Shown here: piece after piece, positions 4,526 to 56,530 of the stretch | Layout of the letters: each line of letters opens with the position of its first letter | Position numbering within the stretch: the first letter of the stretch is position 1 | Sequence record: KY014601.1 | Origin: Escherichia phage Utah | Reading direction: 5' to 3' (one strand) | DNA length: 59,024 nt | Notes under the pieces: model-generated | The model's input: the letters and a program-made list of their open reading frames with translations, nothing else | Databases searched by the model: none | Told to the model about the DNA's origin: nothing | Position numbers and translations under genes: made by a program

Positions 4526-4855
4526 GTGACCAGCATTACTTTCACCAACGTAGCAACATCCGGCGGCGCAGTTCTCGCGCGCACTTGGGCGGAGTTTCGT
4601 TTTCAAATCGGTGATCGCGATGTGCTGTTCAGAGTTACTTCACCTGTTTCGAAACACGAAGCGCCGCTGCTCGTAACCCATGCTGCATCGGGCTATCGAG
4701 TGTGCGACGTCTGGTGGGACGACGTGGCGAAGACTCGCTTTAACGCAGGCCGCAATAATTACAGCGGGGCAGGCGCTAGGGCATTGGTAGCGACGATTGA
4801 GCGAGTCGGCGAACACCGATTCCTCAATGCGATAAAGGCGTATCCGAATGAGTAG
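4526..4855 (+). CDS. Hypothetical protein (GTG start)
   Basis: GTG at 4526 preceded by GGAGAGG RBS; longer ATG-initiated ORF (4292) would overlap previous gene by 170 nt and span a terminator-like hairpin. Confidence 0.4.
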   Translation: MTSITFTNVATSGGAVLARTWAEFRFQIGDRDVLFRVTSPVSKHEAPLLVTHAASGYRVCDVWWDDVAKTRFNAGRNNYSGAGARALVATIERVGEHRFLNAIKAYPNE

Positions 4856-13374: not shown

Positions 13375-13384
13375 GAGAACCACC

Positions 13385-13639
13385 ATGACACCAGAAGAAT
13401 GCCGCGCGCAATATCGCCTCATGCTCAAAGAAGCGATGGATGCGTACCACCAATTAAACCTCGGCGGCTCGGTGCGCGTCGTGGTGGATCAGAACAGTGA
13501 ACGCGTGGAATATACCGCAGCGAACCGACAAAGCCTATGGGCCTACATCGTTCGACTGCAAAACGCGATTAATTCGGACAACCCTTGCGCGGCCTTCATG
13601 GGCCTACCAAGTTCACCAGCAGGATTCTTATTCCCATGA
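13385..13639 (+). CDS. Head-tail joining protein (lambda gpW-like)
   Basis: 84 aa; RVVVDQNSERVEYTAANRQSLWAYIVRLQ and C-terminal PAGF resemble lambda gpW; sits between TerL and portal. Confidence 0.6.
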   Translation: MTPEECRAQYRLMLKEAMDAYHQLNLGGSVRVVVDQNSERVEYTAANRQSLWAYIVRLQNAINSDNPCAAFMGLPSSPAGFLFP

Positions 13640-15315: not shown

Positions 15316-16628
15316 GCAACCACGTAAGAGCGAGCGTCTCAATGGCGCTCAGTCGAATGAACGGCCAGCCGATCGCCATTCGCGAGAATGACCCGACGCT
15401 GCTGACCAACATGCAGCAGATGATGTCCTGCGATGACGAAGATTTTCAGGAGCGCGCTGAACAGCAGATGCGCGAAAACCTGTGTGCAGCGTACGGCGTT
15501 GGCCGACCGTCTGCGGACAAGCCTTTCGCCTTCTCGAACGGCCTCGCCATCATCCCGATTCACGGCACCCTGATTAACCGCTATGGCGGGTATTACTACG
15601 GCTACGTGACGGGCTACAATTTTATCCGCAGTCAGCGTAATGCAGCGCTGGCCGACCCAGATGTCGAGGCTATCATCTACGACGTTAACTCGAACGGCGG
15701 GGAAGCAGCAGGCTGTTTCGAGCTGTCACAGGAAATGTTTGATACACGCGGCGAGAAACCTTCGCTGGCGGTTGTCGATTCAAACTGCTATTCTGCGGCA
15801 TATGCGTTGGCGAGCGCAGCGGATAAAATCGTTGTAACGCCGTCCGGCGGTGCCGGAAGCATCGGTGTTATCGCCCTCCACATCGACATGTCGAAGATGT
15901 TGGCGGACATCGGTATCACCGTGAATATCATCAAGTCCGGGGAGCACAAAGCCGACGGCAACCCGTACGAACCAATGAGCGATGAAGTACGAGCAGACTG
16001 GCAAGCGAGCGTAGATTCAATGCGTACCGACTTCGTCAATCTTGTCGCTCAAAACAGGGATTTAGATCCGAAAGTGGTGCGCGACACCGAAGCGATGTGC
16101 TATAACGCTGGTGAAGCGATGTCAATCGGTCTAATTGACGCGGTATCAACGCCTTCGAAGGCTGTTACCGAATTCCTCAACGGGCCGTCCGATAACAGCC
16201 CGGATCACTCAGGAGCGAACGCAATGAGCTTTACGCAAGAAGAAATGGACGCAGCCCGCGCAGAGGCGGCGACCAACGAACGAACCCGCATTGCCGGGAT
16301 CATGGGCTGTGATGCAGCGGCTAACCGTACCAAACTGGCAAACCACATCGCCTTCAACACGAATATGTCCGTTGAAGACGCGACTGCAATGCTGACCAAT
16401 TCCGCCGAAGAACCGAAAGCCGCTGTTACGACTACCGTCGTTGACGCTGCTGCGCCGGGTAAAACCGGAACCGAAGCGAAGGGTGACAGCCCGTTCGATT
16501 CAGTGATGGCAAGCGCGGAACATCCTAACGCTGGTGCCGATGCAGGCAACGAGCAGGAAGGCGCGAAAGAAACGGCTGGCCTGATGGCGGCAATGACCGC
16601 TGTCGCTGGCAACAACATGGCTAAGTAA
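15312..16628 (+). CDS. Prohead protease, S49/ClpP-class (lambda gpC-like), with Ala-rich C-terminal extension
   Basis: 438 aa; S49-like active-site region VVDSNCYSAAYALASAADKIVVTPSGGAGSIGVIA; C-terminal third is Ala/Thr-rich and scaffold-like. Confidence 0.75.
   Translation: MSNHVRASVSMALSRMNGQPIAIRENDPTLLTNMQQMMSCDDEDFQERAEQQMRENLCAAYGVGRPSADKPFAFSNGLAIIPIHGTLINRYGGYYYGYVTGYNFIRSQRNAALADPDVEAIIYDVNSNGGEAAGCFELSQEMFDTRGEKPSLAVVDSNCYSAAYALASAADKIVVTPSGGAGSIGVIALHIDMSKMLADIGITVNIIKSGEHKADGNPYEPMSDEVRADWQASVDSMRTDFVNLVAQNRDLDPKVVRDTEAMCYNAGEAMSIGLIDAVSTPSKAVTEFLNGPSDNSPDHSGANAMSFTQEEMDAARAEAATNERTRIAGIMGCDAAANRTKLANHIAFNTNMSVEDATAMLTNSAEEPKAAVTTTVVDAAAPGKTGTEAKGDSPFDSVMASAEHPNAGADAGNEQEGAKETAGLMAAMTAVAGNNMAK
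16224..16628 (+). CDS. Candidate nested scaffolding protein (Nu3-like), in-frame internal start within protease gene
   Basis: ATG 16224 is in frame with 15312 ORF and preceded by AGGAG (16211-16215); encodes the Ala-rich C-terminal 134 aa; mirrors lambda C/Nu3. Confidence 0.4.
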   Translation: MSFTQEEMDAARAEAATNERTRIAGIMGCDAAANRTKLANHIAFNTNMSVEDATAMLTNSAEEPKAAVTTTVVDAAAPGKTGTEAKGDSPFDSVMASAEHPNAGADAGNEQEGAKETAGLMAAMTAVAGNNMAK

Positions 16629-18200: not shown

Positions 18201-18494
18201 ATGCCAAAACGTAAAGTTCTCCAGACCGTCATCGTTTACCGCGACGGCGCGCGTATCAAACCGTCCATCGGCGAGATCTTCGATTTCAAACAAGCCGAAC
18301 TGGACAGCATCAACAAAATCAACCCGGATGCCATCGGCCGCCCGGTGATGGAAGTTGACATGGAAAATCAGGCAGCGCAGGAAGCCGCAGCGCAGCAGGC
18401 GAAAGCTGAAACGTCCAAAAAAGACGAGAAGGCTGACGGTGCTAAGAAAAACGCCAAAGACGATAAAAAGTCTGGCGCGGAAGACGAAGTCTAA
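18201..18494 (+). CDS. Hypothetical head-associated protein with Lys-rich region and acidic C-terminus (FI position)
   Basis: 97 aa; ends ...KKSGAEDEV; location equals lambda FI slot. Confidence 0.45.
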   Translation: MPKRKVLQTVIVYRDGARIKPSIGEIFDFKQAELDSINKINPDAIGRPVMEVDMENQAAQEAAAQQAKAETSKKDEKADGAKKNAKDDKKSGAEDEV

Positions 18495-41822: not shown

Positions 41823-42284
41823 TTAAATGGTCGGGTGGGTAATAATCACAGTACGTTCACCCTCGATTGTCTGGTGGTACCGCAGTGAGGACACCAGATG
41901 ATCGAGGTTATTGAAGACCGGGATATTCAGCCGCTTCGCCTCTTCCACCTCAGCGCGGGTACCGGAACTGCGCATCGCATCTTCGCCAATCAGCAGAACC
42001 GCGTCACAACGGCGCATCAATTCCATCGTGCATTCCAGCCAATATTCGTCCGGTATCTCGCCCTCTGTCTTGTGCTCGAAGTGGGCCGTGTTCAGGTGCG
42101 GAGTAACCGGGAACATCTTGTGGACGTAAAGTTGATCGACAACCGACACGGCCGTCTCTTCGGCTTTCAGGATGTTGACCGTCGTCGGAACGGTGCAGCC
42201 CGAACCGATGATGTACGGGCGGTACGGCCCGGCCAGATAGATCATGACGGGCTTGGCCGCCGGGTTACACATATTCACGTTCAT
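41823..42284 (-). CDS. Nucleoside 2'-deoxyribosyltransferase / DNPH1-like protein
   Basis: 153 aa; VMIYLAGPY N-terminal motif and LLIGEDAMRSSGTRAEVEEA resembling the catalytic-Glu region of deoxyribosyltransferase-fold enzymes. Confidence 0.5.
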   Translation of the reverse strand: MNVNMCNPAAKPVMIYLAGPYRPYIIGSGCTVPTTVNILKAEETAVSVVDQLYVHKMFPVTPHLNTAHFEHKTEGEIPDEYWLECTMELMRRCDAVLLIGEDAMRSSGTRAEVEEAKRLNIPVFNNLDHLVSSLRYHQTIEGERTVIITHPTI

Positions 42285-42565
42285 ATTAAGCCTCGGTTAT
42301 ATTCGTCCACGTATTTTTCATTTTCAGGAGATCGGTCTACCTGATTAATCTCGCTGAACTCGCAGGAAATAATATCCCCACTAGGCAGGCGCACCCGCCA
42401 AAAAACATCCTCTTCACGCGGCCCGGTGCGTTCCCATTCGAGCACGGTTCCGTAGTATTTATGCCCGTTGAATCGGTCAGTGAAATGCACGGAGTCGCCT
42501 TTAATCGGCCAGCCCGGTTTTATCTTGGCACGGTATTTCCGTTTTATAGCCTCAACGTCGATCAT
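42281..42565 (-). CDS. Hypothetical protein
   Basis: 94 aa; operon context, 4-nt overlap with downstream gene. Confidence 0.45.
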   Translation of the reverse strand: MIDVEAIKRKYRAKIKPGWPIKGDSVHFTDRFNGHKYYGTVLEWERTGPREEDVFWRVRLPSGDIISCEFSEINQVDRSPENEKYVDEYNRGLI

Positions 42566-42640
42566 ACTTCATCCTCCTCAAAGTCTTCGTCAAAAAGGTC
42601 GGACTGGCCGCCGGAAAAGCTGACGACAAGCGGCGCTTTG

Positions 42641-43354
42641 TTAGTTGGCATCGGTTGAGTCCTCGCATAATGGTATGAAGTCCTTCGGGCCGTCGCCTGA
42701 ACCGGGGAAGCGCCGGAAGACCATTTCGTCTTCAATGGTCAGTTTATCCTTGCTGTTCCCGCGACGATAGAAGTCGGCCATGCCGCTCCCGTACGAACGG
42801 TCAATCCCGGCACCGTACGGATCTTGCGGGCAAAGTTCCAGCGCCAGCACTTCTCGCCAGTCAGGACGATCGATGCGGCTGACGATGCGATGGTTATTCG
42901 ACACCCGGCAGTACCCCGAGGCTATCAGCGTTTCCGCCAGCCGGGCCTGTTCCTTGCCGCGCATCGTTTTCGCGCGCTTGACATCCTCTTTCCTTGCCCG
43001 GGCGAAATACTCCCGCGAGAAGCGGCTACCGACGTTCTCCGCGAAGATGCGCTGGTCTTTGATGACCATGCCCCATTTCCGTCGGCTACCTTCTTCCACG
43101 TAGCGAATGGCCCCGGCGTAGCGCAGCAGCATGGCATCGGTCAGGCGGGCATTCTTCGGGTCTTTGGCTTTCCACCAGCCGTACACCTCCACCATGCGGG
43201 CCATCGCCTTGTCGCAGTACCACAACTCGGCGTGGCTGGTGGGCGAGTATGTTGGGTAAGACTTTGCGCCGCCGTCAAACGCCCGGTAGCAGTACCAGAC
43301 CCCGCCGCTGTACTGGAAGTGCGGTATCTTGTGATGCTCTTTCATCGTAGCCAT
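42641..43354 (-). CDS. Hypothetical protein
   Basis: 237 aa; Trp/Tyr-rich N-region; no motif recognised. Confidence 0.5.
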   Translation of the reverse strand: MATMKEHHKIPHFQYSGGVWYCYRAFDGGAKSYPTYSPTSHAELWYCDKAMARMVEVYGWWKAKDPKNARLTDAMLLRYAGAIRYVEEGSRRKWGMVIKDQRIFAENVGSRFSREYFARARKEDVKRAKTMRGKEQARLAETLIASGYCRVSNNHRIVSRIDRPDWREVLALELCPQDPYGAGIDRSYGSGMADFYRRGNSKDKLTIEDEMVFRRFPGSGDGPKDFIPLCEDSTDAN

Positions 43355-43355
43355 G

Positions 43356-43808
43356 TCAGTCCTCGGCCAGTTCAGGATTAATGGTAAACCGCAGCCCGTA
43401 CTTAAAATCGTTTACGGACAGCAGATGGATGATGTCGTCCGAGTTTTCTATCTTGATTCCCTTCGCGGCCAGCGCATCCCTCGGCGAAAGCCACGGATCG
43501 ATAGTTAACTGGCGGTATACCGGATCCATGTGTATCGGCGAGCCTTCGCGCACGATGAACGGCAGCGGGTACGGACGGCCAGACCGGGCGTGGATACGGC
43601 GTGGCCCGGGCGAACGGGTAATACCGTAGAACGATGCCATAACGTCGGGCAGCCCTTTCCCGTACATCGAGCGTACGACTTCTTCGTCGCCGCGCAGGAG
43701 CCGCTTAACGATATGCCGGACAAACGGGTACAGATCCCACTTCGCGCGTTGGCGGATGACCGAAGCCTGTCGGCGGGCCTCCTGCTGGAATAATGATCCG
43801 CGTTTCAT
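43356..43808 (-). CDS. Hypothetical protein
   Basis: 150 aa; tightly packed in leftward operon. Confidence 0.5.
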   Translation of the reverse strand: MKRGSLFQQEARRQASVIRQRAKWDLYPFVRHIVKRLLRGDEEVVRSMYGKGLPDVMASFYGITRSPGPRRIHARSGRPYPLPFIVREGSPIHMDPVYRQLTIDPWLSPRDALAAKGIKIENSDDIIHLLSVNDFKYGLRFTINPELAED

Positions 43809-44152
43809 TTTTTATATTTATCCTCTTCGTTGAAATTACGGACAGGCACGCCGTCCCAAATGCGTACGATGCCCGGGTGCGCCTCGCGCCACGATCCGAG
43901 CAGGTGGTCAGCCCACTCCTTCAAGTCTTCGCTGTATGCGGCCAGAAGTCGGTCTTCAATGGACTGGCGTTCCGCTGCGGACATCGGCCCGACCTGATGG
44001 ATGATGTCAAACCAGATCTCGTCGTGGACACCGTTGACGGCCACCAGATAGCCTTTTGCTTCCAGATCTGCGATGACGGCGTGGGTGCGGTCGGCTTTCA
44101 TGCGCATGTAGTTCATGCGGCGGCCCTCCCCCATAAGATTTGCAATGTGCAT
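43805..44152 (-). CDS. Hypothetical protein
   Basis: 115 aa; start uncertain (internal Met at 44116 would give a 2-nt overlap instead of 40 nt). Confidence 0.45.
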   Translation of the reverse strand: MHIANLMGEGRRMNYMRMKADRTHAVIADLEAKGYLVAVNGVHDEIWFDIIHQVGPMSAAERQSIEDRLLAAYSEDLKEWADHLLGSWREAHPGIVRIWDGVPVRNFNEEDKYKK

Positions 44153-44394
44153 GGCGGCTCGTCAGGATCGGAATAGATTTCGAACCCGGCGTCCTTTATC
44201 CAGCCGATCAGCATGGCGCGGGATTTATCGGACAGCGGGTGGTCGTTGTGTAACAGCGCGACCGTAGTGGTTGTCAGCCCGGCCGATGCGGCCCGGCGGA
44301 TAAGATGCTCCACCTCGCCACGCACTTCAATCGCTTCGGCAGTGTGGTGGTCAGTTGCGGCTTGATACATTTCTTCGGCGGTGATAGTCAGCAT
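44113..44394 (-). CDS. Hypothetical protein, first gene of leftward unit 4
   Basis: 93 aa; ATG 44394 preceded by GGGGG RBS and promoter at 44438-44467. Confidence 0.5.
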   Translation of the reverse strand: MLTITAEEMYQAATDHHTAEAIEVRGEVEHLIRRAASAGLTTTTVALLHNDHPLSDKSRAMLIGWIKDAGFEIYSDPDEPPCTLQILWGRAAA

Positions 44395-44415
44395 GTTGCC
44401 CCCTAAAGTAAAAAT

Positions 44416-44435
44416 CCCCGTTGTTGCCTTCGGGG
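44416..44435 (-). terminator. Terminator-like hairpin overlapping the start region of promoter 44438-44467
   Basis: Minus strand: CCCCG-AAGGCAACAA-CGGGG followed by AUUUU; lies between -10 and RBS. Confidence 0.45.
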
Positions 44436-44437
44436 AT

Positions 44438-44467
44438 AATATAGGTTATACACGCGACGTATGTCAA
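44438..44467 (-). promoter_or_regulatory. Leftward promoter with conserved spacer element (TTGACA-TACGTCGCGTGTATAAC-CTATAT)
   Basis: Minus strand -35 TTGACA (44462-44467); spacer contains ACGTCGCGTGTA core shared with promoters at 46494, 49756, 53083. Confidence 0.6.
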
Positions 44468-44474
44468 ACGGTTT

Positions 44475-44987
44475 CTAAGACTTTCTTTTCCGGGCGTGCT
44501 CCAGTCGATCACCGTGGCCCTTCTCGACCATGAAATCGCGGGTCTGTTTGTGCAGGTTGGCGATCGTTTCCTTCGTTTTCCACCAGCGCGCCACTATCCC
44601 TTCGCGCACTTCCCGTTCGCGGAACAGGACGGCCAAGTCATTCGCGGTGATGTCATACCCTTCGCACGCGGCCAAAACTCCGGCCTTGAATTCGTAGAAC
44701 AGGCTTTGGATCTCCCGGAATTCGGCCTCGGTTACGATCTCGATATTGACCGTTTTCCCTTCACCGATGTCGTCCTCGGTAAACAGGCACCCGGCTTCGC
44801 CAATGGCGCGGCCATCGTCCTTCCGGTAGCGCGTATTCCCTACGATGATCTGCGTCGGCGTGGTGCGCTCTACGCGTCGTTTCACGGCGAAGGTTACTTC
44901 CGGGCTGTACCCGATACGGATGCTGTTACGCTCCAGTGTCATGTCGCCAGTTTCGAGGTGTCCGAATCTCAATTTTTTATCGGCCAT
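44475..44987 (-). CDS. Hypothetical protein
   Basis: 170 aa; last gene of leftward unit 3. Confidence 0.5.
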   Translation of the reverse strand: MADKKLRFGHLETGDMTLERNSIRIGYSPEVTFAVKRRVERTTPTQIIVGNTRYRKDDGRAIGEAGCLFTEDDIGEGKTVNIEIVTEAEFREIQSLFYEFKAGVLAACEGYDITANDLAVLFREREVREGIVARWWKTKETIANLHKQTRDFMVEKGHGDRLEHARKRKS

Positions 44988-45223
44988 TCTGCGTATTCTC
45001 CCTTCGGTAATTCGTCAGTCACGTCGCGCTCGGCCCATTTCAGGAACGCTTCGCGGGTACAACTCGGGTAGTGTCGGCCGAAGCCTACGACCGGGCCGTC
45101 GTACTGGATGTGCGTGGCCCCGATGTACAGGATAGTGCGGTCGTTCACCAGTCCGTTTCGGTTCTGCGGCCGTTTACCGCGATAGGTGCGGCCGACTTTA
45201 AGTTTTAACTCTTCATCGGCCAT
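44969..45223 (-). CDS. Hypothetical protein
   Basis: 84 aa; overlapping neighbours. Confidence 0.45.
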   Translation of the reverse strand: MADEELKLKVGRTYRGKRPQNRNGLVNDRTILYIGATHIQYDGPVVGFGRHYPSCTREAFLKWAERDVTDELPKGEYAEWPIKN

Positions 45224-45458
45224 CGGTGTCCACCTCGACTTCGAACGTGCGCGGAACGGTCATGGTCAGCACGTCATTCTCGGTGAACGGTGACAGCGGT
45301 TCGTCGCCCGGCTGGAAGCGCAGCGTGACGCTGCCAACGTTGTGATACGTGATATAGCGAAGGCGGAACTGCTCGCCAAATATGGTAGCGAGTACGCCCG
45401 GCTTAACGTCTCCTGCGGGAATTTTCATGGTCATAGTCTCCAGTCTAACGGCTCCCAT
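45213..45458 (-). CDS. Hypothetical protein
   Basis: 81 aa. Confidence 0.45.
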   Translation of the reverse strand: MGAVRLETMTMKIPAGDVKPGVLATIFGEQFRLRYITYHNVGSVTLRFQPGDEPLSPFTENDVLTMTVPRTFEVEVDTDGR

Positions 45459-45625
45459 TGGCCGTCTCGTTTGATGTAGCAGCCGCTTAACGGGCTGTAT
45501 TTGGTTGGTAGTTCGGTCTGGACGCTGACGTCGTTACACCCGATCGCCGCGCCCACACGGCCAATGACAAACAGCACACCGCAGATAATCAATACAAACA
45601 GCGTTAGCGCAGCGATCTTCTTCAT
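45431..45625 (-). CDS. Small secreted or membrane protein (possible lipoprotein)
   Basis: 64 aa; N-terminal signal-like KKIAALTLFVLIICGVLFVIG with Cys. Confidence 0.45.
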   Translation of the reverse strand: MKKIAALTLFVLIICGVLFVIGRVGAAIGCNDVSVQTELPTKYSPLSGCYIKRDGQWEPLDWRL

Positions 45626-45635
45626 GGTGGCCCCT

Positions 45636-46454
45636 TTATTCCTTCGGTGGATTTGATTGGTGGCGATTTAGCCAGATGACAATCCCGGCAGTATAATTGA
45701 TCACGCCGAGCAACTCCCTAACCCTTTGGTCATGCGTTGGCAGGTTGACGCCTTCTACGACCTTCTTGCACACCTGATAGACCAATCCAAGCGGGCTATC
45801 GATCAGATCAGAAATGGCGTTCATCGGCTGCTGGCTGAACGGCAGGTCATTGGCGTGTCGCTCCCGCCCTTTACCATACGCGGCTTGCGTCAGCGCATCA
45901 TGCAGCACTTTGACTAATTCGGAATAATCGTTACTGTCTTTGATGTTCCGGAATTCGTACCGCCATGACCGGGAGGCCGACGGTGCAACGGCTTCCGGCG
46001 CGACGAGGGATTCGTTAAGCGGCCAGCCCTGCGCGAAGGCGAACATGATGTAATTCATCGCGTCGATGTACTGATTCTCTTCGAGACAACGACGAATGGC
46101 GTCGGAACATTGCTTCGGCCAGTCCGGCTGCATCCATCCCAATTCCAGCCCCGGGTTTTTGCGCTCGAACTGCACCAGACGGTCAAGCATGTAGCCGAAC
46201 GTCTTCTCGGCCTGTTCAACCGTTGGCGCGCTCAGTTTAGGGCGGCGCAGCACGATGACCGTCTCGGCGTCGGCGGCTTTCGGGATGGCGATCTCATTGT
46301 CCTTCATGGAATTGAGAAGGCCGAGCACGTAGTCGGTCGCGTCGTCGTCCGTTTCAAAGTCGTCCATGTCGAGGTTTAACGCGTTCATCACTGCGTTGCG
46401 GAAACGCTGCGCGGATGGCTTGCCAGCGTGCTTTTGTTTCTGTACGTCTACCAT
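45636..46454 (-). CDS. Hypothetical protein
   Basis: 272 aa; ATG 46454 lies right after hairpin T-run without clear SD, so true start may be internal (Met 46388). Confidence 0.5.
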   Translation of the reverse strand: MVDVQKQKHAGKPSAQRFRNAVMNALNLDMDDFETDDDATDYVLGLLNSMKDNEIAIPKAADAETVIVLRRPKLSAPTVEQAEKTFGYMLDRLVQFERKNPGLELGWMQPDWPKQCSDAIRRCLEENQYIDAMNYIMFAFAQGWPLNESLVAPEAVAPSASRSWRYEFRNIKDSNDYSELVKVLHDALTQAAYGKGRERHANDLPFSQQPMNAISDLIDSPLGLVYQVCKKVVEGVNLPTHDQRVRELLGVINYTAGIVIWLNRHQSNPPKE

Positions 46455-46463
46455 AATAAAAAA

Positions 46464-46491
46464 CTCCCGTTGGTGGATTAACCTTCGGGAG
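46464..46491 (-). terminator. Intrinsic terminator hairpin overlapping promoter 46494-46522
   Basis: Minus strand: CUCCCG-(16 nt loop)-CGGGAG followed by UUUUUU (plus A-run 46458-46463). Confidence 0.6.
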
Positions 46492-46493
46492 TA

Positions 46494-46522
46494 ATATTAA
46501 TTACACATGTCGCGTATGTCAA
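46494..46522 (-). promoter_or_regulatory. Leftward promoter (TTGACA-17-TAATAT) with conserved spacer element
   Basis: -35 TTGACA 46517-46522, spacer TACGCGACATGTGTAAT, -10 TAATAT 46494-46499. Confidence 0.6.
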
Positions 46523-46531
46523 ACGCTTTCT

Positions 46532-47218
46532 TTAAATCTCGTCCCACATCTTGATCCAGCGGTTCCGGATCTTGGCCGATACGTTAGCCAGTGGTGCGCC
46601 GATTTCCAGTAGCGTTTCACGGTCGATATACTCGTTGGGGAAGATGCGGTCAGTCGCCGGGTCGAAGATGTGGATGGCTGCGCCGAACCCGGCCGACGTG
46701 ATTTCGCTGCTGCCTTCCTTCGGCCGGAACCAGACTGGCGGTTCGAACCCGATGCGCCCTTTGATGAAGATGGTGCGCGTGGCGATAGCGTCCGGCCACC
46801 AGCTTTCCGACGTCGCCGCTTTGGTCAGCCAGATGGTGCCAGCGCCTTTTGCCCGTTCCTCGTCGGCCTTGCGCATGATGTGGGTCATCCCGGTAAGCGG
46901 TTCTTTCCCGGCGCGCTTCTGACTGTACGGCGGGTTAGCGTAGGCCCAAACTCGGGTCTTGGCGTCGAATTCGTCGCTGGCGTGGATCTCGGCCAGACGC
47001 TTCGCCCAATCCTGCCGCAGCGCGTTATCTTCGGCCGTAAAGAATCGCTCGCATTTGGCGTTCTGGCCGTCGGTGAACAGGTCGAGCACGATTGGCCCGT
47101 ACAGCTTGTTAATCGCTTGGAACAGCCACTCCGGCGTACGCCATTGGTCGCCTATCCACTTCGGTTCATGCTCGTCTAAACCTTTCAGCGCGTTCAGCGC
47201 ATCAACGTACTGACTCAT
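46532..47218 (-). CDS. DNA N6-adenine methyltransferase (phage Dam-type)
   Basis: 228 aa; N-terminal WRTPEWLF motif and catalytic ANPPY motif IV characteristic of phage N6-adenine MTases. Confidence 0.7.
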   Translation of the reverse strand: MSQYVDALNALKGLDEHEPKWIGDQWRTPEWLFQAINKLYGPIVLDLFTDGQNAKCERFFTAEDNALRQDWAKRLAEIHASDEFDAKTRVWAYANPPYSQKRAGKEPLTGMTHIMRKADEERAKGAGTIWLTKAATSESWWPDAIATRTIFIKGRIGFEPPVWFRPKEGSSEITSAGFGAAIHIFDPATDRIFPNEYIDRETLLEIGAPLANVSAKIRNRWIKMWDEI

Positions 47219-48318
47219 TAAAAAGTTTCTCCGTTCAGCAGGTCTTCGGCCTCAATGTAGAAGGCTTCGTATTTGTCAGCCGCCATCATGGACAGCGGGT
47301 GGGCGCCGGAATATTTACGGATCAGATCGCTGAACGTGGATGCGCTCATTGACGCGTGGATGCGGTTTATCATGTCCTTGACCATCTGCTGCGTGACTGG
47401 TTTTGGCGGAGGTGACAGCAGCAGGTTATCGCACATCGCATGGATGTACGTGACGATCGGTGCTGGCAGGTTCGCCACCAGATTCGCGTCAAGGCGGTAA
47501 TGCGGCGTGTCGAGGTACTCGGCGGCATGGTCAGGGTACGCCCGAAAGCCGGACAGGATCACCATGCGGGCCGTGGTCAGGTCGATGGCCGCCAGTTCTT
47601 CCCACGCGGCGCGGACTGACGCGGACTGTCGGGTGTACCGTACGTTATTCTGCATCGACTTAACCGTGGCGCGCAGCTTTGTGATCTCCCTGTCGTGCTC
47701 GGTGTTATCGTCAGCGTGTCGGCGATGGGCTTCGGCCAACTGGATTTGCAGACTGGTGACAGCGCTTTCCGCCGTATCGAGGCTGCGGGTCTTGGTATCC
47801 AGCGCTTCGCGTAGTGCGGCCAGTTCGCCCGGCGTGATGTTGGCGAGGCGCAGCGGTTCGAAGTCTTTCAGCGTCAGCGGGCCATCGCTGGTCATCTGTC
47901 CGGTCAGGCGCTGTATGTCCTGCATAGCGAGGCTTCCAGCCAGACCGATGCTGGTGGTGCCTGCAATCTTCGCGTATTTAGCGCTGGCACGTACCGTTTC
48001 GAGGATGGTGCTCAGGATCTGCTGGCACTGCTCGCGCTCCCACTCGGTCACTTCTGCGGCCGTTGGCGTAACCGCCGATGGGCGTTTAACTCGCGTCCAG
48101 TGAATGCGGATTTCCCGGGGCATTGCGTCGCCGTCCACCTCGACTTCATCGACTGACTGGATGTTCCCTTCCGGAACGCCGCAGTTATCGAGAAGGTATT
48201 TATGCGCCACGCACAGGATATGATTTGGGGATATGCCGCCTTCCTGCTCGATAGCCATGACGAGGATGTCTTTCAGGCTTTTGTCGTCGGTGATGTAAGT
48301 GACTTTTGGTTCGCTCAT
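47218..48318 (-). CDS. Hypothetical protein
   Basis: 366 aa; central coiled-coil-like region; no motif recognised. Confidence 0.5.
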   Translation of the reverse strand: MSEPKVTYITDDKSLKDILVMAIEQEGGISPNHILCVAHKYLLDNCGVPEGNIQSVDEVEVDGDAMPREIRIHWTRVKRPSAVTPTAAEVTEWEREQCQQILSTILETVRASAKYAKIAGTTSIGLAGSLAMQDIQRLTGQMTSDGPLTLKDFEPLRLANITPGELAALREALDTKTRSLDTAESAVTSLQIQLAEAHRRHADDNTEHDREITKLRATVKSMQNNVRYTRQSASVRAAWEELAAIDLTTARMVILSGFRAYPDHAAEYLDTPHYRLDANLVANLPAPIVTYIHAMCDNLLLSPPPKPVTQQMVKDMINRIHASMSASTFSDLIRKYSGAHPLSMMAADKYEAFYIEAEDLLNGETF

Positions 48319-48989
48319 TTGGATGCCTTTAAGATGTTAGAGAATTCAACGATGTTAACGATTTTGTGCTGGCGGCCGCTGTTCGATCTGGCGAGGCTGG
48401 CCGACTCCATCACGCGAGGATTCATTTCAACGCGCGGCGTGCGCCCGGTACCGTATTGATCCATGCTGCTCATGCGGTCAACGCTGATGCTGTACATCTG
48501 GCTGGCCGTCATCCAGTTACCCATCGTATTGATGAAAAATTCCATCGCCTGCAATGCGTCGAGTGCATAGACCAACGTGGACGCGTTGTCCGTGTACAGC
48601 ACGTACGCGCCGACGGACGGAACAACCTTATCGACGCCGCTCATGTATTCGGCGATCCACTCCGGCGGCACTGGCGGTACCGCTCGACATTCTCCGGACG
48701 CCGGGGTGCCGTACGGATAGGCGAAAGCCGGGCTGGCCGAAACGCGACGTCCGGTGGGCGTGGTCGTAACAGTTGCTTTCGGCTCGTCTTTCGGAAGGTT
48801 CTGGAGACAGGCCGGGCCGCCTTGCCAGCGTTTCCAGATCGTTTTCTTCGGCTCGTCTGACTCCGGAGCGGTACATGGCGGCGGGTCGATGTCATTCGCG
48901 TCCCATGTCTTCTGGCAGTCGCGACAATAAAACTGGTCGCTATGCTGCACGACGGATAAATGACTTCCGCCATTGGCTTCGATTCTCAT
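48315..48989 (-). CDS. Hypothetical protein with N-terminal Cys-rich (zinc-ribbon-like) segment
   Basis: 224 aa; FYCRDCQKTW...PPPC near N-terminus. Confidence 0.5.
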   Translation of the reverse strand: MRIEANGGSHLSVVQHSDQFYCRDCQKTWDANDIDPPPCTAPESDEPKKTIWKRWQGGPACLQNLPKDEPKATVTTTPTGRRVSASPAFAYPYGTPASGECRAVPPVPPEWIAEYMSGVDKVVPSVGAYVLYTDNASTLVYALDALQAMEFFINTMGNWMTASQMYSISVDRMSSMDQYGTGRTPRVEMNPRVMESASLARSNSGRQHKIVNIVEFSNILKASK

Positions 48990-49732
48990 ATCTCAACGTC
49001 CTCTTCTTTCAAAATGCGGAATGCGCCACCGCCGACTTTCCAGCCCTGCCATACGTCGGCCAGAAGCGCCGCCCGGTACTTCCGGCGAAACACGTTGTAG
49101 ATCATGTCCCAATTCTCGGATGGCAGGTCTGACGCGATACCGCCGCTCTCCCAAGCCCAATCGCGAGGCGACTGCGTCAGCCATTTCAGCGGGGGCCGGG
49201 GGTAGACGTACGGATTCGCCAGACCGCAGGCCACCAGCCCGCGTTTAATCCATGCACGTTGCCACCATAAATCGTGAACCGTCTTCCCGGCGATGAATTC
49301 TTCGTCCAGCATCGCGCACAGGATCGTCATGGCGGCCTTTTCTGCGTTCATGGGTACGCCAATGTCGTCCCAATCTTCCAGCGCGGCCCTGACGCCGTCA
49401 GCGCTGCCGTCGTCGTTGCTGGAGGCTGAACGGTCATGCAGGATGACGTCGAAAACCATGAACGGGAACACGACCTGTTCGCCGTTCCGCGTGTATTTCG
49501 GGTTAGGCTCGCTGAACATAGCCGAGTACAGGCGGCGGACGTGGTCTTCGAGATCCGGGACGAAGCCCGTCAGGTTGTCGGTTGTATCGGCGTTAACGAC
49601 TTCAATGTCGGTTCCGTTGGTGCGGATCAGGCAGCGCGGCCCGTATGGCAGGGGGAAAACGTACAGCACTTCTTTCCCGATCAACGCTTGGTTGAAAGGT
49701 ACGAATTTCATTACGTGGGTCTTCATCGGCAT
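48986..49732 (-). CDS. Hypothetical protein, first gene of leftward unit 2
   Basis: 248 aa; ATG 49732 with AAGGAG RBS downstream of promoter 49756-49784. Confidence 0.5.
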   Translation of the reverse strand: MPMKTHVMKFVPFNQALIGKEVLYVFPLPYGPRCLIRTNGTDIEVVNADTTDNLTGFVPDLEDHVRRLYSAMFSEPNPKYTRNGEQVVFPFMVFDVILHDRSASSNDDGSADGVRAALEDWDDIGVPMNAEKAAMTILCAMLDEEFIAGKTVHDLWWQRAWIKRGLVACGLANPYVYPRPPLKWLTQSPRDWAWESGGIASDLPSENWDMIYNVFRRKYRAALLADVWQGWKVGGGAFRILKEEDVEI

Positions 49733-49755
49733 GACTCCTTTGTTATGGTACGGGA

Positions 49756-49784
49756 ATATTAGTCGTACACGCGACGTACGTCAA
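49756..49784 (-). promoter_or_regulatory. Leftward promoter (TTGACG-17-TAATAT) with conserved spacer element
   Basis: -35 TTGACG 49779-49784, spacer TACGTCGCGTGTACGAC, -10 TAATAT 49756-49761. Confidence 0.6.
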
Positions 49785-49808
49785 TAACTTTATTCGGGGC
49801 AAAAGAAA

Positions 49809-49835
49809 GCCCGCGTAAAGGGATTGCGGGCTTTT
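49809..49835 (-). terminator. Bidirectional rho-independent terminator ending leftward unit 1
   Basis: GCCCGC (49809-49814)-loop-GCGGGC (49826-49831) with TTTT on plus side and AAAAGAAA (U-run on minus transcript) on the other. Confidence 0.65.
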
Positions 49836-49921
49836 GGAAGGTGGCATCCGAAGATTACCACTGGCTTAAAGCGGACAACGCAGGAGCCGATAAGGAAGCA
49901 CTATGCCGAGTCCGCAGTTAA

Positions 49922-50197
49922 TCATATGTCGGGGTTACTGTAAATAAGATTCCAGTATTTGTACTCCTTCAAGTCCAGTTCGATGACGCATGGGTCATCC
50001 AGCGCGCTCAGGCAGGTGCCGTAGTCCTCGACAAAGACGCAGGAGGATTCCGGGTGATGCAGCAGTCGCACCCGTCGGTAGTTCAGGTGCCATTCCGGAC
50101 TGAACACATGGTTCTCCGGCTGGCGTATCAGCATGATCTGGCCTGTCGTTCTGACCTGCCAGTATTGGTCTACTTGGGGCGTGGCATAGGCTCCCAT
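49922..50197 (-). CDS. Hypothetical protein
   Basis: Start placed at internal ATG 50197 (RBS AAGGAG) rather than 50329 to avoid 128-nt overlap with upstream gene. Confidence 0.4.
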   Translation of the reverse strand: MGAYATPQVDQYWQVRTTGQIMLIRQPENHVFSPEWHLNYRRVRLLHHPESSCVFVEDYGTCLSALDDPCVIELDLKEYKYWNLIYSNPDI

Positions 50198-50201
50198 TTC
50201 G

Positions 50202-50435
50202 TTACTCCTTTTTGTCCGCTCTGTCCCGGTAAACGCGGGTACCCATCTTCCCGTAGATCTGGTCTTGCAACGTGAACCGGATGGACAGGCGGATGTTAAG
50301 CCGATAGCCCATTCGACGCAGATAGCCAAGATCCTGCGGCTTCACGCCTTCGATAAAGAACGAATCGCCGTCCTTCATCCCGAGCAGAAGTTTTTCGTGA
50401 GTTTCACGCACGCTTTTGTCGGTAGTCGCGGCCAT
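50202..50435 (-). CDS. Hypothetical protein
   Basis: 77 aa; immediately downstream of RdgC-like gene. Confidence 0.45.
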   Translation of the reverse strand: MAATTDKSVRETHEKLLLGMKDGDSFFIEGVKPQDLGYLRRMGYRLNIRLSIRFTLQDQIYGKMGTRVYRDRADKKE

Positions 50436-50437
50436 TG

Positions 50438-51526
50438 TTAAACCTCGTCGTCGTCTTCTTCGTCGTCTTCTTCGTCGTTCAGCGTTCCGGTGTACTCGAC
50501 TACCTGCCCGGCCTCGTCCAGCACGCTGATCACCGCACGCAGGGACTTATCGAGTTGGAACAGGTTAGCCATCATGGTCAGGAACTGGCCGCCGTCGGTG
50601 CCGTAGCGTTCGAGCGTGGCGTCGTAGTTCGCATCAACGTCGGCCTCGCCGATGTGGATACCGGACAGGATGGCTTTGTCGGACAGGCGGAAGTACACGG
50701 TGTCGATGCCCGGGCATTGCGTATCGACTTCGAGATCCAGCGCGCGGACAGTCCAGTGACGTGACAGCAGGTCAACCACCGACTCGTCTTTGAAGATGTC
50801 CGTGTCCTTCATCTTGACGTCGTCGCCATCGTCGTGTTTCAGGTGGATAAACGCATCGCCCTTGATGCCGTCCTGCTGGCCGAGAACCGCGCGCTGCATT
50901 AACTGGCGCAGCTCATACTCGCTCGGCAGGAGGTGTTCGACGGGCCATGTGCCGAGCGCGGTACGGATCAGCGCGCTGCACTCTTCTGCCGTCTTCGCGC
51001 TCGACGTGAACACGTACACGAACGGGGCGGACAGGATGACGTTGACGCGGGAAGGGCGGATAGGCGCGTGTTTCAGCATTTCCGCTTCCACGTCGTCCTT
51101 CATCTGCGCCCAATCCTTGCGGTTCGGCTCCCAACCCTCGATCTCTTTCTCCCGCAACGCGGCCATGCGCTTCACGACTTCATTTCGTACGCTGACGCCG
51201 GGCAACACACGTTCGCGTTTCTCGATCTGGAAGACGATGGCGTTTGTCCCGGGGATGGCGAGGGCGAATTTGCTGTCAACCTCTTCGCCGTACGCTGCAA
51301 AGCCCATTGTCTTGTAAGACGCCTCCGGCGGATCTGACACTTCATGCTTTTCGAGTGCATCGCTTAACGCTCCTTTAGCGAAAGACGTCACCGCCTCTTC
51401 GTCAACGTTCGGCAGATTCAGGATCAGGCGGTGCAGCGGCTTGACCTTCTCGTTACCGTCGTTGGCCGCGTCATACAGCGCGCCGAGGTGCAGGATAATG
51501 GCTTTCTCATAACCCTTGATTTTCAT
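50438..51526 (-). CDS. RdgC-like recombination-associated protein with long acidic C-terminal tail
   Basis: 362 aa; region SALIRTALGTWPVEHLLPSE resembles E. coli RdgC (LALLRKSLGSLPVVPLS); ends ...NDEEDDEEDDDEV. Confidence 0.55.
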   Translation of the reverse strand: MKIKGYEKAIILHLGALYDAANDGNEKVKPLHRLILNLPNVDEEAVTSFAKGALSDALEKHEVSDPPEASYKTMGFAAYGEEVDSKFALAIPGTNAIVFQIEKRERVLPGVSVRNEVVKRMAALREKEIEGWEPNRKDWAQMKDDVEAEMLKHAPIRPSRVNVILSAPFVYVFTSSAKTAEECSALIRTALGTWPVEHLLPSEYELRQLMQRAVLGQQDGIKGDAFIHLKHDDGDDVKMKDTDIFKDESVVDLLSRHWTVRALDLEVDTQCPGIDTVYFRLSDKAILSGIHIGEADVDANYDATLERYGTDGGQFLTMMANLFQLDKSLRAVISVLDEAGQVVEYTGTLNDEEDDEEDDDEV

Positions 51527-51869
51527 TCTCTATGGCTCCCAAGTTGATTAGATTGGCTGGTGCTCCGTGGTACATGGATTGCGCTGCATGGAACATCGCG
51601 GCGCGTAGTGCTTCTTTGGCCGCCCGAAGGCCCGCCATTGATTCAGCGTACTGGTCGCTGACCGTGTTATACGCCGCCTCGTCGTTGTCCAGCGTGGCGA
51701 GGTCGAGCATTTTGGTACTATGGGCCTGCACGTCGTCTTCCATGTCCTTGAAAAACGTCTCAAGGGCAGACAGTTTGCAGGTGATTTGGTCTAACCGGAC
51801 TTTGCGCAGTTCTTGGTACTGCACGCGAACGAATTCAATGCCTTCCACCAGCCACCTCCACGACGACAT
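51507..51869 (-). CDS. Hypothetical protein
   Basis: 120 aa. Confidence 0.45.
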   Translation of the reverse strand: MSSWRWLVEGIEFVRVQYQELRKVRLDQITCKLSALETFFKDMEDDVQAHSTKMLDLATLDNDEAAYNTVSDQYAESMAGLRAAKEALRAAMFHAAQSMYHGAPANLINLGAIENENQGL

Positions 51870-52170
51870 TCTGCACTTCCGGGCATGGCATATTCGTCAT
51901 GGCCCAATCCAGAAACTTCACGATGTACATGCGCATGGCCGCACATTCGTCCGCGCCACGGGCCTTGCCGTGCTTCGCGATGGCCGGGTCGCCGGACTGA
52001 TAGAAGGTCACGCGGTGATTCGTGGCCGACGACACCTTGATCCCGGTGTGCGTGGCATGGATGGTCACGCTGTAGATCCGCTCGATAGCGCGGAACGCCG
52101 GGACGACGTCGATGCGGCCTTTCGGGTGAATAGCGTTGTTCACCATCAACGCGGTATTAGTCGGCTGCAT
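51835..52170 (-). CDS. Hypothetical protein
   Basis: 111 aa. Confidence 0.45.
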   Translation of the reverse strand: MQPTNTALMVNNAIHPKGRIDVVPAFRAIERIYSVTIHATHTGIKVSSATNHRVTFYQSGDPAIAKHGKARGADECAAMRMYIVKFLDWAMTNMPCPEVQNVVVEVAGGRH

Positions 52171-52597
52171 TGAGCGGATCCTCTTTCAGACGGTAGGTGA
52201 TGGTGTCCGGGCGAGTCGCGTCGATTTCCAGTTCAGGCATCTGCCCGGTGATCAGGCGGGACGGCGTAAGAACTGCGGTGCGCAGGCCGTTCTCGAACAT
52301 GATGTTGGCCGCCGTGACCAGCGAAATACTTTCGATGTGGTCTTGGGTCTGGTCGAGGCGGCGCTGTAACAGTTCGACCTTCTCGGCGTTCTCGTCCGGA
52401 ATGTCGAAGGCAGACCGCAATCCGGCGATCAATGCGATGGCGTCCGCGCGGGTCAGGGGGGTGGCGATCTCGGTGTCACCGTTGTCCTTCTCGATGTAGA
52501 TCTCGCCCTCTTTTTGGCCGGGCTTCTTATAGATAAAGGCCGTACGGGCAATGTCTCGTACCGGACTCAGTTCAATAGGGTGGTGCGTTGTTTTCAT
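52157..52597 (-). CDS. Hypothetical protein
   Basis: 146 aa. Confidence 0.45.
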   Translation of the reverse strand: MKTTHHPIELSPVRDIARTAFIYKKPGQKEGEIYIEKDNGDTEIATPLTRADAIALIAGLRSAFDIPDENAEKVELLQRRLDQTQDHIESISLVTAANIMFENGLRTAVLTPSRLITGQMPELEIDATRPDTITYRLKEDPLNAAD

Positions 52598-52668
52598 CGG
52601 TGTGCGTCCTATAGGGTGTCAGGTCAAAAGGGTGGTACGCCATTTTTCAGGCGTGCCGTCCTACGTTT

Positions 52669-53040
52669 TTAAACTTCGTCGTCGTCCGCGACGTCGGTGG
52701 CCGTACAGGTTACGACGGCCTGAATGAACATGCGGCCAGACGGGTAAGTCACCAGTGCGGATTCCATACTGAACCGTTGGCCGTGGTGTTTCATGGCGTT
52801 CCGGATGGAAGAATTAAGGCTGGCCCGCATCTTCGCTTTGAGGGCATTGGCCTCGTCCTGTACCTGCGAAAGCGTACGGTCAAGCGGGAGTTCTTGGGAC
52901 AGGGTGTACACGCCACCGACTTCCAGCGCAATGAGGTTCCCCACGACGCTGTACACGCGCACGCGTGACGGCAGTTCAACATCCGGCTCGGTCGTCATCA
53001 TTGCGCCAGTCAGTTCGGCCGGGCTTAGTTCTTTGCTCAT
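52669..53040 (-). CDS. Hypothetical early protein with acidic C-terminus, first gene of leftward unit 1
   Basis: 123 aa; ends ...TDVADDDEV; promoter 53083-53111 upstream. Confidence 0.5.
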   Translation of the reverse strand: MSKELSPAELTGAMMTTEPDVELPSRVRVYSVVGNLIALEVGGVYTLSQELPLDRTLSQVQDEANALKAKMRASLNSSIRNAMKHHGQRFSMESALVTYPSGRMFIQAVVTCTATDVADDDEV

Positions 53041-53082: not shown

Positions 53083-53111
53083 ACAATAGTTCTACACGCG
53101 ACGTATGTCAA
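53083..53111 (-). promoter_or_regulatory. Leftward early promoter (TTGACA-17-TATTGT) with conserved spacer element
   Basis: -35 TTGACA 53106-53111, spacer TACGTCGCGTGTAGAAC, -10 TATTGT 53083-53088. Confidence 0.55.
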
Positions 53112-53164
53112 TTCATTTCATCCAGTAATTATGATGACCGGGTGACGCTCCAGTTTAGTTTCAG

Positions 53165-53409
53165 CCGGATGACGTTTTGAAGTAAGGCGGGTGGCCGGGC
53201 CGCCGGGCTTCAACCGGGTAACTTTTTCAAGTAAGCGCGGAACGTCGCAACGACAACCGGACAGGTTTTTCAAGTAAGCCCGTCGGCCGGGTGAAATTGC
53301 CCCGACGCTGGTGGACAAAACCGTCAGCCGGGTAGGTTTTTGAAGTAAGGACTGGCCGCGTTGTTCAAAATTTTTCAACCGGGTAACTTTTTCAAGTAAG
53401 CCCGTCGGG
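53165..53409. repeat. Five direct iteron-like repeats, consensus CCGG(G/A)NA(A/G)NNTTTT(C/G)AAGTAAG
   Basis: Copies start at 53165, 53214, 53257, 53328, 53379 (spacing 43-71 bp); followed by AT-rich patch and a GC-rich block 53440-53700; no ORF. Confidence 0.6.
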
Positions 53410-53706: not shown

Positions 53707-53753
53707 TTGACGCACGCCGCGTATATCATCTACATTTGAATTCCCTTCGGGGG
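53707..53753 (+). promoter_or_regulatory. Rightward promoter unit with conserved core and 5' UUCG stem-loop
   Basis: TTGACGCACGCCGCGTATATCAT-CTACAT then CCCTTCGGGGG; about 47-nt unit nearly identical to 56484-56530. Confidence 0.55.
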
Positions 53754-56483: not shown

Positions 56484-56530
56484 TTGACGCACGCCGCGTA
56501 TATCATTTATATTTAAATTCCCTTCGGGGG
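56484..56530 (+). promoter_or_regulatory. Second rightward promoter unit (TTGACG-17-TTATAT) with conserved core and UUCG stem-loop
   Basis: TTGACGCACGCCGCGTATATCAT-TTATAT then CCCTTCGGGGG; gene ATG 56575. Confidence 0.6.

Follow-up and report, generated by a model that had tools for sequence, protein, structure and literature searches.

Promoters, gene conservation and shared acidic protein tails in the leftward gene cluster of Escherichia phage Utah

Escherichia phage Utah (sequence record KY014601.1; genus Chivirus, Casjensviridae), a Chi-like phage that targets flagella, carries a block of leftward genes at positions 41823-53040 of the 59,024-nucleotide stretch that we analysed, hereafter called the window. 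We found that this block contains 22 clear genes and one open reading frame (ORF) of 29 amino acids (aa), all on the minus strand and arranged in four operons, PL1 to PL4. We consider it probable that the block is the early cluster of a Chi-like siphovirus, built from a replication and recombination core and variable cargo, with the Dam methyltransferase as an ordinary orphan methylase. In such a cluster, the promoter-proximal half (PL1 operon, the genes at the start of the PL2 operon, and Dam) would be a family core that serves replication and recombination. The PL3 and PL4 operons would be lineage-variable cargo, including an enzyme with a nucleoside 2'-deoxyribosyltransferase (NDT) fold and a protein with a domain that we call GKGxERHA.

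Layout and conservation of the cluster

The division into core and cargo came from a tblastn comparison of all 22 proteins with the homologous regions of Soft, JC01 and Redjac, which belong to three other genera of the Casjensviridae. The DUF7609 protein encoded by the first gene, the 111-, 120-, 77- and 91-aa proteins, the RdgC-like protein, protein D, the N-terminus of protein C and Dam are all kept across these genera (Table 1). In contrast, the PL3 and PL4 operons (41823-46454) are variable or absent in the other genera, and because of this variation accessory host-interaction genes are expected there. For the gene at 49922-50329, the true start is most likely at 50197, which gives a product of 91 aa.

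An initial annotation of the block, made from the letters and the ORF translations, had proposed four transcription units. This was confirmed by four sigma-70-like promoters in intergenic gaps and by hairpins at the boundaries. The four promoters are near-identical and have the sequence TTGAC-RTACGYSRCRTGT in common. The pattern TTGAC(A/G)TACG(T/C)(C/G)(G/A)C(G/A)TGT occurs six times in the window against 0.06 expected, and it is kept in Siskin and Phraden. Its six copies are the four leftward promoters and two rightward ones, at 53707 and 56484. We propose that host sigma-70 RNA polymerase would transcribe the cluster from PL1 to PL4, with the terminators at the boundaries dividing it into four operons. 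Since the promoters are of the host RNA polymerase type, the cluster is probably early. The conserved 13-bp spacer common to the four promoters is probably a shared operator. At PL3 and PL4, the terminator hairpins start 2-3 nucleotides (nt) past the -10 hexamers. In this arrangement, read-through RNA from upstream would be stopped and promoter-started RNA would continue, because the 5' arm of the hairpin is absent from the latter.

The two rightward promoters (53707-53736 and 56484-56513, plus strand) share with the leftward four the -35 element and a spacer variant, TTGACGCACGCCGCGTAT, and both are followed by an identical leader hairpin, AATTCCCTTCGGGGG. This suggests that the six early promoters, four leftward and two rightward, form one regulon. 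The divergent control region from PL1 to the first rightward promoter also holds five direct repeats of 31 nt (53160-53404; consensus TTCAACCGGGTAACTTTTTCAAGTAAG, spacing 43-71 bp), which could be replication-origin iterons or binding sites of a regulator. An 86-aa ORF that spans the repeats (53118-53378) had no PHROG match.

Table 1. Features of the leftward cluster and other tail-bearing genes of the window
Feature	Position	Strand	Remarks
Promoter PL1	53083-53111	-	TTGACA-17-TATTGT, conserved spacer TACGTCGCGTGTA; upstream of first gene
DUF7609 protein (Pfam), 123 aa	52669-53040	-	first cluster gene; ends -VADDDEV; in Soft, JC01, Redjac
Hairpin after first gene	52629-52662	-	-14.9 kcal/mol, weak U tract; possible attenuator
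146-aa protein, phrog_7942	52157-52597	-	in two of three other genera (Soft, Redjac)
111-aa protein	51835-52170	-	in all three other genera
120-aa protein	51507-51869	-	in all three other genera
RdgC-like protein, 362 aa	50438-51526	-	Pfam PF04381; acidic tail -EEDDDEV
77-aa protein	50202-50435	-	core gene, conserved across genera
91-aa protein	49922-50197	-	core gene, conserved across genera
Terminator of PL1 operon	49806-49834	-	intrinsic; -14.8 kcal/mol, then UUUCUUUU
Promoter PL2	49756-49784	-	sigma-70-like, intergenic gap
Protein D, 248 aa	48986-49732	-	ends -EEDVEI; 38-52% identity across Casjensviridae genera compared
Protein C, 224 aa, Cys-rich	48315-48989	-	zinc-ribbon-like N-terminus; conserved C-terminal PRVE-NP motif
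Protein B, 366 aa	47218-48318	-	essentially Chivirus-only, at least 76% identity
Dam-family N6-adenine methyltransferase (ANPPY), orphan	46532-47218	-	Pfam PF05869; last gene of PL2 operon
Promoter PL3	46494-46522	-	sigma-70-like, intergenic gap
Terminator hairpin	46462-46492	-	-14.2 kcal/mol, then U6; starts 2 nt past PL3 -10
Protein E, 272 aa	45636-46454	-	C-terminal ~95 aa form the GKGxERHA domain
GKGxERHA helical domain	45639-45959	-	C-terminus of protein E
64-aa small protein	45431-45625	-	'lipoprotein-like' in the initial annotation
81-aa protein	45213-45458	-	weak match, Redjac only
84-aa protein	44969-45223	-	accessory, variable half
170-aa protein	44475-44987	-	RefSeq/PHROG label 'thymidylate synthase complementing protein' rejected
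Promoter PL4	44438-44467	-	sigma-70-like, intergenic gap
Terminator hairpin	44414-44435	-	-10.4 kcal/mol, then U5; overlaps PL4 transcript start
Accessory gene	44113-44394	-	variable half
Accessory gene	43805-44152	-	variable half
Accessory gene	43356-43808	-	variable half
Accessory gene	42641-43354	-	variable half
29-aa ORF	42562-42651	-	largely acidic tail (...SDLFDEDFEEDEV), ends ...FEEDEV; in Phraden, not in Siskin
94-aa protein	42281-42565	-	accessory, variable half
DUF7768 protein, NDT-superfamily fold (model)	41823-42284	-	last gene of PL4 operon; Y16, D94, E112 invariant
Prim-Pol/helicase	942-3527	-	tail ...FDDEDEV
138-aa protein	4048-4464	+	tail ...EEDDV
DUF2800/PD-(D/E)XK nuclease	4848-6185	+	tail ...DDDEV
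Enc34-type gp2.5-like single-stranded DNA-binding protein	6240-6836	+	tail ...DEDWEDEV
Small terminase	10740-11309	+	tail ...DDDEV
DUF7443 protein	18201-18494	+	tail ...AEDEV

Every ORF named in the initial annotation was found on the minus strand where it had been placed. A nucleotide search with 41823-53040 gave matches in 129 phage records; in 91 records the match spanned 80% of the query or more. Almost all of the 129 were Chi-like (Chivirus, Casjensviridae). Salmonella phage TS13 aligned along the whole region at 97.6% identity. More than 60 Chivirus genomes are 94-98% identical to the region, so it is not a chance feature. Among the published Chi-like genomes (Chi, KM458633; iEPS5; Siskin; Escherichia phage Utah), gene content and order are the same at 94-100% identity, and no sequence difference sets the block apart from them. 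The same three functions had been assigned in Salmonella phage Chi (KM458633) by Hendrix et al. (2015). Because the block occurs in more than 100 sequenced phages and these calls were already in print, the finding itself was known, and the initial annotation is a rediscovery of published knowledge on Chi-like phages. The present analysis adds to the published genomes a promoter and terminator map, the split into core and accessory genes, the tail motif, a domain family and corrected annotations. We also noticed that dozens of assemblies of Salmonella enterica, and some of Citrobacter and Serratia, hold separate Chi-like contigs of 58-60 kb. This suggests that a Chi-like phage often accompanies clinical isolates, as a carrier state, as pseudolysogeny or as contamination.

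Most of the proteins remained without a functional family. For about 19 of them, scans of Pfam and NCBIfam gave no family with a known function, which agrees with the roughly 20 motif-less proteins of the initial annotation. Proteins other than Dam, the RdgC-like protein, the NDT-like protein and the DUF7609 protein belong to lineage-specific PHROGs without function. An NCBIfam scan of six proteins of the region and four homologues of the GKGxERHA domain gave zero matches. PDB sequence searches with the NDT-like protein, the 170-aa 'ThyX' protein, a GKGxERHA profile and a protein D profile returned only noise (E of at least 0.24).

Acidic tails on early and replication proteins

A scan of all ORFs in the window revealed 10 proteins of unrelated families that end in an acidic tail. 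Eight of these tails are exactly [DE]DEV, one is -EEDDV and one is -EEDVEI. Four tail-bearers lie inside the cluster: the DUF7609 protein, the RdgC-like protein, protein D and the 29-aa ORF, which occupies an apparent gap in the PL4 operon. Soft, Redjac and Phraden have kept the tails on their orthologues. A joint change is seen in JC01, to -DDDF in gp04 and in the protein that binds single-stranded DNA (SSB), -DDEI in the small terminase and -DDDI in RdgC. None of seven unrelated phage loci that served as a control has such tails. Furthermore, the tails use different codons and different stop codons, indicating selection on the peptide. Looking for the tail peptide strings in the literature brought up nothing of relevance.

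In phage T7, gp2.5 and gp4 each have an acidic tail that ends in Phe, and these tails bind the gp5 DNA polymerase and the DNA groove of gp2.5. Utah likewise encodes an SSB of the gp2.5 type, a primase-helicase and a polymerase of family A. Its SSB and primase-helicase both end in an acidic tail with a hydrophobic last residue, and the JC01 SSB ends in -DDDF. Unlike in T7, the tail is found on at least ten proteins, the RdgC-like protein, the nuclease, the small terminase and several uncharacterised proteins among them, its terminal residue is Val, and docking is predicted. In the crystal of the Enc34 SSB, the tail reaches into the DNA groove of the SSB molecule next to it, and deletion of the tail alters DNA-binding specificity (PMC5686142).

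Since the same tail is present on early proteins and on replication proteins, there is probably one common docking surface. Core proteins with the tail would dock on it, either by polymerase binding as in T7 or in the SSB groove. By analogy, the receptor may be the phage's polymerase of family A or the groove of the SSB, with ten proteins competing for it, and the comparison suggests that early proteins bearing the tail dock at this same site as clients. The tails also suggest that the conserved half works in replication and recombination. That there is a C-terminal tail code of at least ten proteins with one receptor, and together with it a new family defined by the GKGxERHA domain, is a joint reading that we put forward tentatively and with more doubt than belief.

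Alternatively, the tails could be independent and convergent devices of auto-regulation, each shielding the DNA-binding surface of its own protein, with no common partner. Most tail-bearers are indeed DNA-binding (SSB, RdgC-like protein, primase-helicase, nuclease and small terminase), and the altered specificity of the Enc34 SSB after tail deletion would fit. However, eight tails are exactly [DE]DEV and the terminal residue shifts jointly to F or I in JC01. This joint shift is predicted by co-evolution with one receptor and is not required by charge shielding. In addition, the 29-aa ORF holds little beyond the tail. We regard independent auto-regulation as distinctly unlikely, and a common docking site is the reading we retain for the tails.

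One tail-bearer of the cluster, the RdgC-like protein, had been recognised in the initial annotation, and the call was supported by a match to PF04381 of 68.8 bits against a cutoff of 25 (E 6.6e-19; model positions 19-292 of 298). RdgC is a RecA antagonist. The Pfam match in the phage protein covers near the full length of bacterial RdgC, a ring-shaped modulator of RecA that binds double-stranded DNA. Unlike bacterial RdgC, this protein is phage-encoded and has a 12-residue acidic tail ending in DDDEV, which is kept in the orthologues of Soft, Redjac and JC01. The RdgC-like protein is predicted to bind DNA.

Three proteins, D, C and B, are encoded before Dam in the PL2 operon. We tried to read protein D as a degenerate ligase or nucleotidyltransferase, with PYGPR taken as a KxDGxR-like motif, and rejected this assignment, as searches gave no supporting match. 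In protein C, H10, C22, C25 and C39 are invariant across genera and form a zinc-ribbon-like pattern, H-x11-C-x2-C-x13-C. A C-terminal R...MD.Y..G..PRvE.NP motif is also kept across genera, the middle of the protein is variable and Pro-rich, and the orthologue in Soft is annotated as a metallochaperone. Protein B is 100% identical to Utah_053, a hypothetical protein of phage Utah. A word-indexed search found no relatives of it outside Chi-like phages, an exhaustive search added only homologues of 36-38% identity, and tblastn gave a weak C-terminal match in Redjac.

Dam, the DUF7768 protein and restriction-site avoidance

The Dam-type N6-adenine methyltransferase was correctly called in the initial annotation. 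It matched PF05869 with 105.6 bits against a cutoff of 28.1 (E 2.9e-30; residues 18-207 on model positions 4-166 of 169), and the catalytic motif IV, (D/N)PP(Y/F), is present in the translation as WAYANPPYSQ. Its identity to Dam from Stx2 phages and from ST64B is 46-47%. In the tblastn comparison, Dam was found in all three other genera at 50-63% identity. Phage orphan Dams of the PF05869 family (phage T1, VT2/Stx2 type) are GATC-specific. Like them, Utah Dam combines a strong match to the profile hidden Markov model and an NPPY motif with the lack of a cognate endonuclease. It differs from many lambdoid phages, in which Dam is fused to a phosphoadenosine phosphosulfate (PAPS)-reductase (NinC-like) domain, in that it stands alone. 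GATC is not depleted in the genome (304 observed against 349 expected). Utah Dam is probably GATC-specific, and it would give self-protection by N6-methyladenine (m6A) and nothing more exotic.

RefSeq labels this gene 'phosphoadenosine phosphosulfate reductase', a label that we rejected: Pfam found only the Dam domain and no PAPS-reductase domain. The protein matches phrog_33262 only at the C-terminal Dam part of that family (positions 283-478), and because phrog_33262 is a fusion family, the wrong label was passed to Dam. Additional orphan methyltransferases occur at the equivalent place in related genera: Soft has Dam and an extra C5 methyltransferase (10179-12255), and JC01 has three methyltransferases and a gene truly labelled as PAPS reductase (10138-15526). 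This part of the cluster thus looks like a hot spot of methyltransferase exchange.

The last gene of the PL4 operon had been described as NDT/DNPH1-like. We found support for the fold but not for membership of PF05014. The protein matched the Pfam family DUF7768 (33.2 bits against a cutoff of 26), whereas PF05014 (Nuc_deoxyrib_tr) reached only 17.7 bits against 28.8, and DUF4406 was also sub-threshold. It belongs to PHROG 355 (E 1.7e-31), and nearly all of its homologues carry PF24963. Ten residues (Y16, A18, G19, A41, P62, C93, D94, S106, G108 and E112) do not vary among 34 homologues, whose identity goes down to about 31%. In its AlphaFold model (predicted local distance difference test, pLDDT, 85.9; predicted template modelling score, pTM, 0.83), the protein has the NDT-superfamily fold. 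The best Foldseek matches to this model were 2a0k, 6evs, 8rh3, MilB (4jem) and DNPH1 (9da4), with probabilities of 0.9-1.0 and TM-scores of 0.39-0.53, all of them enzymes of the NDT/DNPH1/MilB superfamily. The YxAGP, CDA and SxG(T/A)xxE motifs, with their invariant Tyr, Asp and Glu, resemble the catalytic constellation of this superfamily, an equivalence based on motif position. Compared with the solved members, the phage protein has 13-20% identity and a TM-score of about 0.5, carries an extra beta-hairpin and a C-terminal extension, and falls into DUF7768/DUF4406 instead of PF05014. With its Tyr/Asp/Glu set intact, it is probably an N-glycosidase that acts on small molecules, nucleotides or nucleosides.

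The presence of both enzymes had led to the proposal that Dam and the NDT-fold enzyme, possibly with neighbouring proteins, modify the nucleotide pool or the bases, so that virion DNA would hold a non-canonical base. Both genes are present and look catalytically competent, and true NDTs have recently been tied to diaminopurine phages. In some DUF7768 homologues there is a fusion to helical domains that, judged by eye, look like nucleotide pyrophosphatases, and Dam is translationally coupled to three uncharacterised proteins. However, Dam closes the PL2 operon and the NDT-like gene closes the PL4 operon, 4 kb apart, and their phyletic patterns differ: tblastn found Dam in Soft, JC01 and Redjac and the NDT-like gene in Redjac only. 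In unrelated phage contigs, DUF7768 homologues are surrounded by replication genes, primases and helicases included, and no modification partner recurs. Moreover, PurZ/DatZ, DpdA/QueCDE, hydroxymethylases, glycosyl- or amino-transferases and Mom-like proteins were all missing from the 22 proteins of the region and, in a Pfam scan, from 18 proteins encoded in other parts of the window.

Evidence from the DNA itself also spoke against base modification, as the genome shows extreme avoidance of restriction sites. Among the palindromic hexamers expected at least 5 times, 15 of 52 are absent, compared with 24 of 3,333 non-palindromic hexamers. The sites CCGCGG (33 expected), GCCGGC (32), GTCGAC (25), CCATGG (22) and CTGCAG (22) do not occur at all, and over the whole genome CCWGG was found once against 124 expected, GGWCC not once against 96, and AGCT 39 times against 126. 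GAATTC was not avoided (28 observed, 28 expected). Such strong avoidance indicates that the DNA is cleavable, since it would be unnecessary if the DNA were hypermodified. Consistent with this, Chivirus LuPh5 is sensitive to EcoRI in vivo, as it is to AbiK, and Chi DNA was shotgun-cloned and Sanger-sequenced without difficulty. We therefore judge base or pool modification to be very improbable and this lead not worth pursuing. As read from the sequence, the anti-restriction strategy of the family is methylation plus site avoidance, not base hypermodification, and the phage would escape restriction mainly by avoiding sites, with Dam methylation in addition. Among non-palindromic hexamers, those that are missing likewise resemble restriction sites (RCCGGY, CCTTGG, CACGAG, GGGCTC and C-N-N-CAG).

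The GKGxERHA domain and the variable half

Protein E, encoded by the gene next to PL3, carries at its C-terminus a domain of wide distribution. We ran one exhaustive HMMER search with an unorthodox query, four proteins concatenated, and assigned the matches by the coordinates of the best-matching stretch. The search returned 2,170 cluster representatives at E<=0.001, most of them due to the last ~95 aa of protein E. The domain occurs in proteins of 111-750 aa, in N-terminal, C-terminal or internal position. Its signature, Y..L..VL..A..QAA.GKG.ERHA..LPF..Q.M..IS......G...Q..KK..E.........ELLGAINY.AGI.I.L, contains 17 invariant residues, including K, R, H, Q, K, K, E, E and Y. A profile of the domain gave 1,984 matches among 5.8 billion proteins, in many phage groups.

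The domain had no match in Pfam or NCBIfam and no significant one in the PDB. A Pfam scan of ten multidomain carriers, the 750-aa protein included, likewise found no matches, the cluster members of ten carriers were named only 'hypothetical protein', and the sole recurrent partner domain, PF07603, was uninformative. Elsewhere the domain is found in replication modules: it is close to the DNA polymerase in phiR18 and to the SSB and a helicase in Arya, and in AH2 it lies two genes after a pyrophosphatase. The GKGxERHA domain may represent a new family, of enzymes or of ligand binders, in phage replication modules. As a widespread phage domain without a Pfam or NCBIfam entry, it merits follow-up.

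The small lipoprotein-like gene of the initial annotation is a real ORF, but the lipoprotein call is weak. The lipobox ([LVI][ASTVI][GAS]C, with an uncharged h-region) is not canonical: the protein has LIIC with Ile at -1, and its AAIGC comes after Arg23. The Siskin orthologue is annotated as a transmembrane protein, and the product reads better as a single-pass membrane protein than as a lipoprotein. We also rejected the ThyX label of the 170-aa protein, which has no Pfam match at E<=0.01, no PDB match and no RHRxxS motif; the label derives only from the lineage-specific phrog_9072. Wrong public labels were found in Siskin, JC01, NC_025442 and others. The orthologue of protein E is called 'tail tape measure protein' in SEP13. 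Errors of this kind, among them PAPS reductase, ThyX and tape measure, are spreading in RefSeq for Chi-like phages. Separately, Phraden gives orthologues of otherwise unassigned genes the labels 'pre-neck appendage-like', 'viral integrase' and 'tail fiber', which are cited here as they stand.

The initial annotation had also pictured an early region in which anti-defence and takeover genes concentrate. A leftward cluster with promoters of the host RNA polymerase type agrees with part of this view, and the variable distal half (41823-46454) fits accessory host-interaction genes. It is plausible that the phage is virulent. Taken further, the cluster could be mainly an anti-defence and takeover arsenal, in which most of the uncharacterised proteins, those with acidic tails included, would inhibit host systems, for example as DNA mimics (Ocr/ArdA type), RecA/RecBCD inhibitors or decoys for defence sensors. 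The PL3 and PL4 operons vary between genera, related genera swap extra methyltransferases into the same place, and RdgC is known to antagonise RecA. Acidic peptides can mimic DNA, and the 29-aa ORF, almost tail only, could be a decoy. However, the half that bears the tails and the RdgC-like protein is kept across genera with different hosts, and the same tail is present on bona fide replication and packaging proteins. Searches of Pfam, NCBIfam, PHROGs and the PDB gave no anti-defence assignment for the proteins searched, and the Chivirus tested was sensitive to EcoRI and AbiK. We consider an arsenal of this kind unlikely.

Several points weigh against the preferred reading, a replication and recombination core with variable cargo. 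The probable early timing is a reading of promoter type only, and the conserved spacer could be an element of promoter strength instead of an operator. The tails could auto-inhibit DNA binding in each protein independently, and two tail-bearers, the small terminase and the DUF7443 protein of the structural module, are not replication proteins. The probable GATC specificity of Dam is a prediction from identity and GATC counts. For the NDT-like protein, activity is likewise predicted: its score does not reach the PF05014 cutoff, and against solved NDTs the TM-scores are only 0.45-0.53. Finally, sensitivity to EcoRI is known for LuPh5, not for Utah, and some base modifications do not block EcoRI.

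Within the cluster, only the tail motif and the GKGxERHA domain merit follow-up. The shared tail is a testable handle that links four uncharacterised early proteins to the replisome. If the tail code is true, it would couple early products, recombination, replication and packaging, and the 29-aa ORF would be a free competitor peptide. For the family, Chiviruses offer a case in which site avoidance and an orphan Dam would together serve as the anti-restriction strategy, which bears on phage therapy and on the use of these phages as probes of defence systems.

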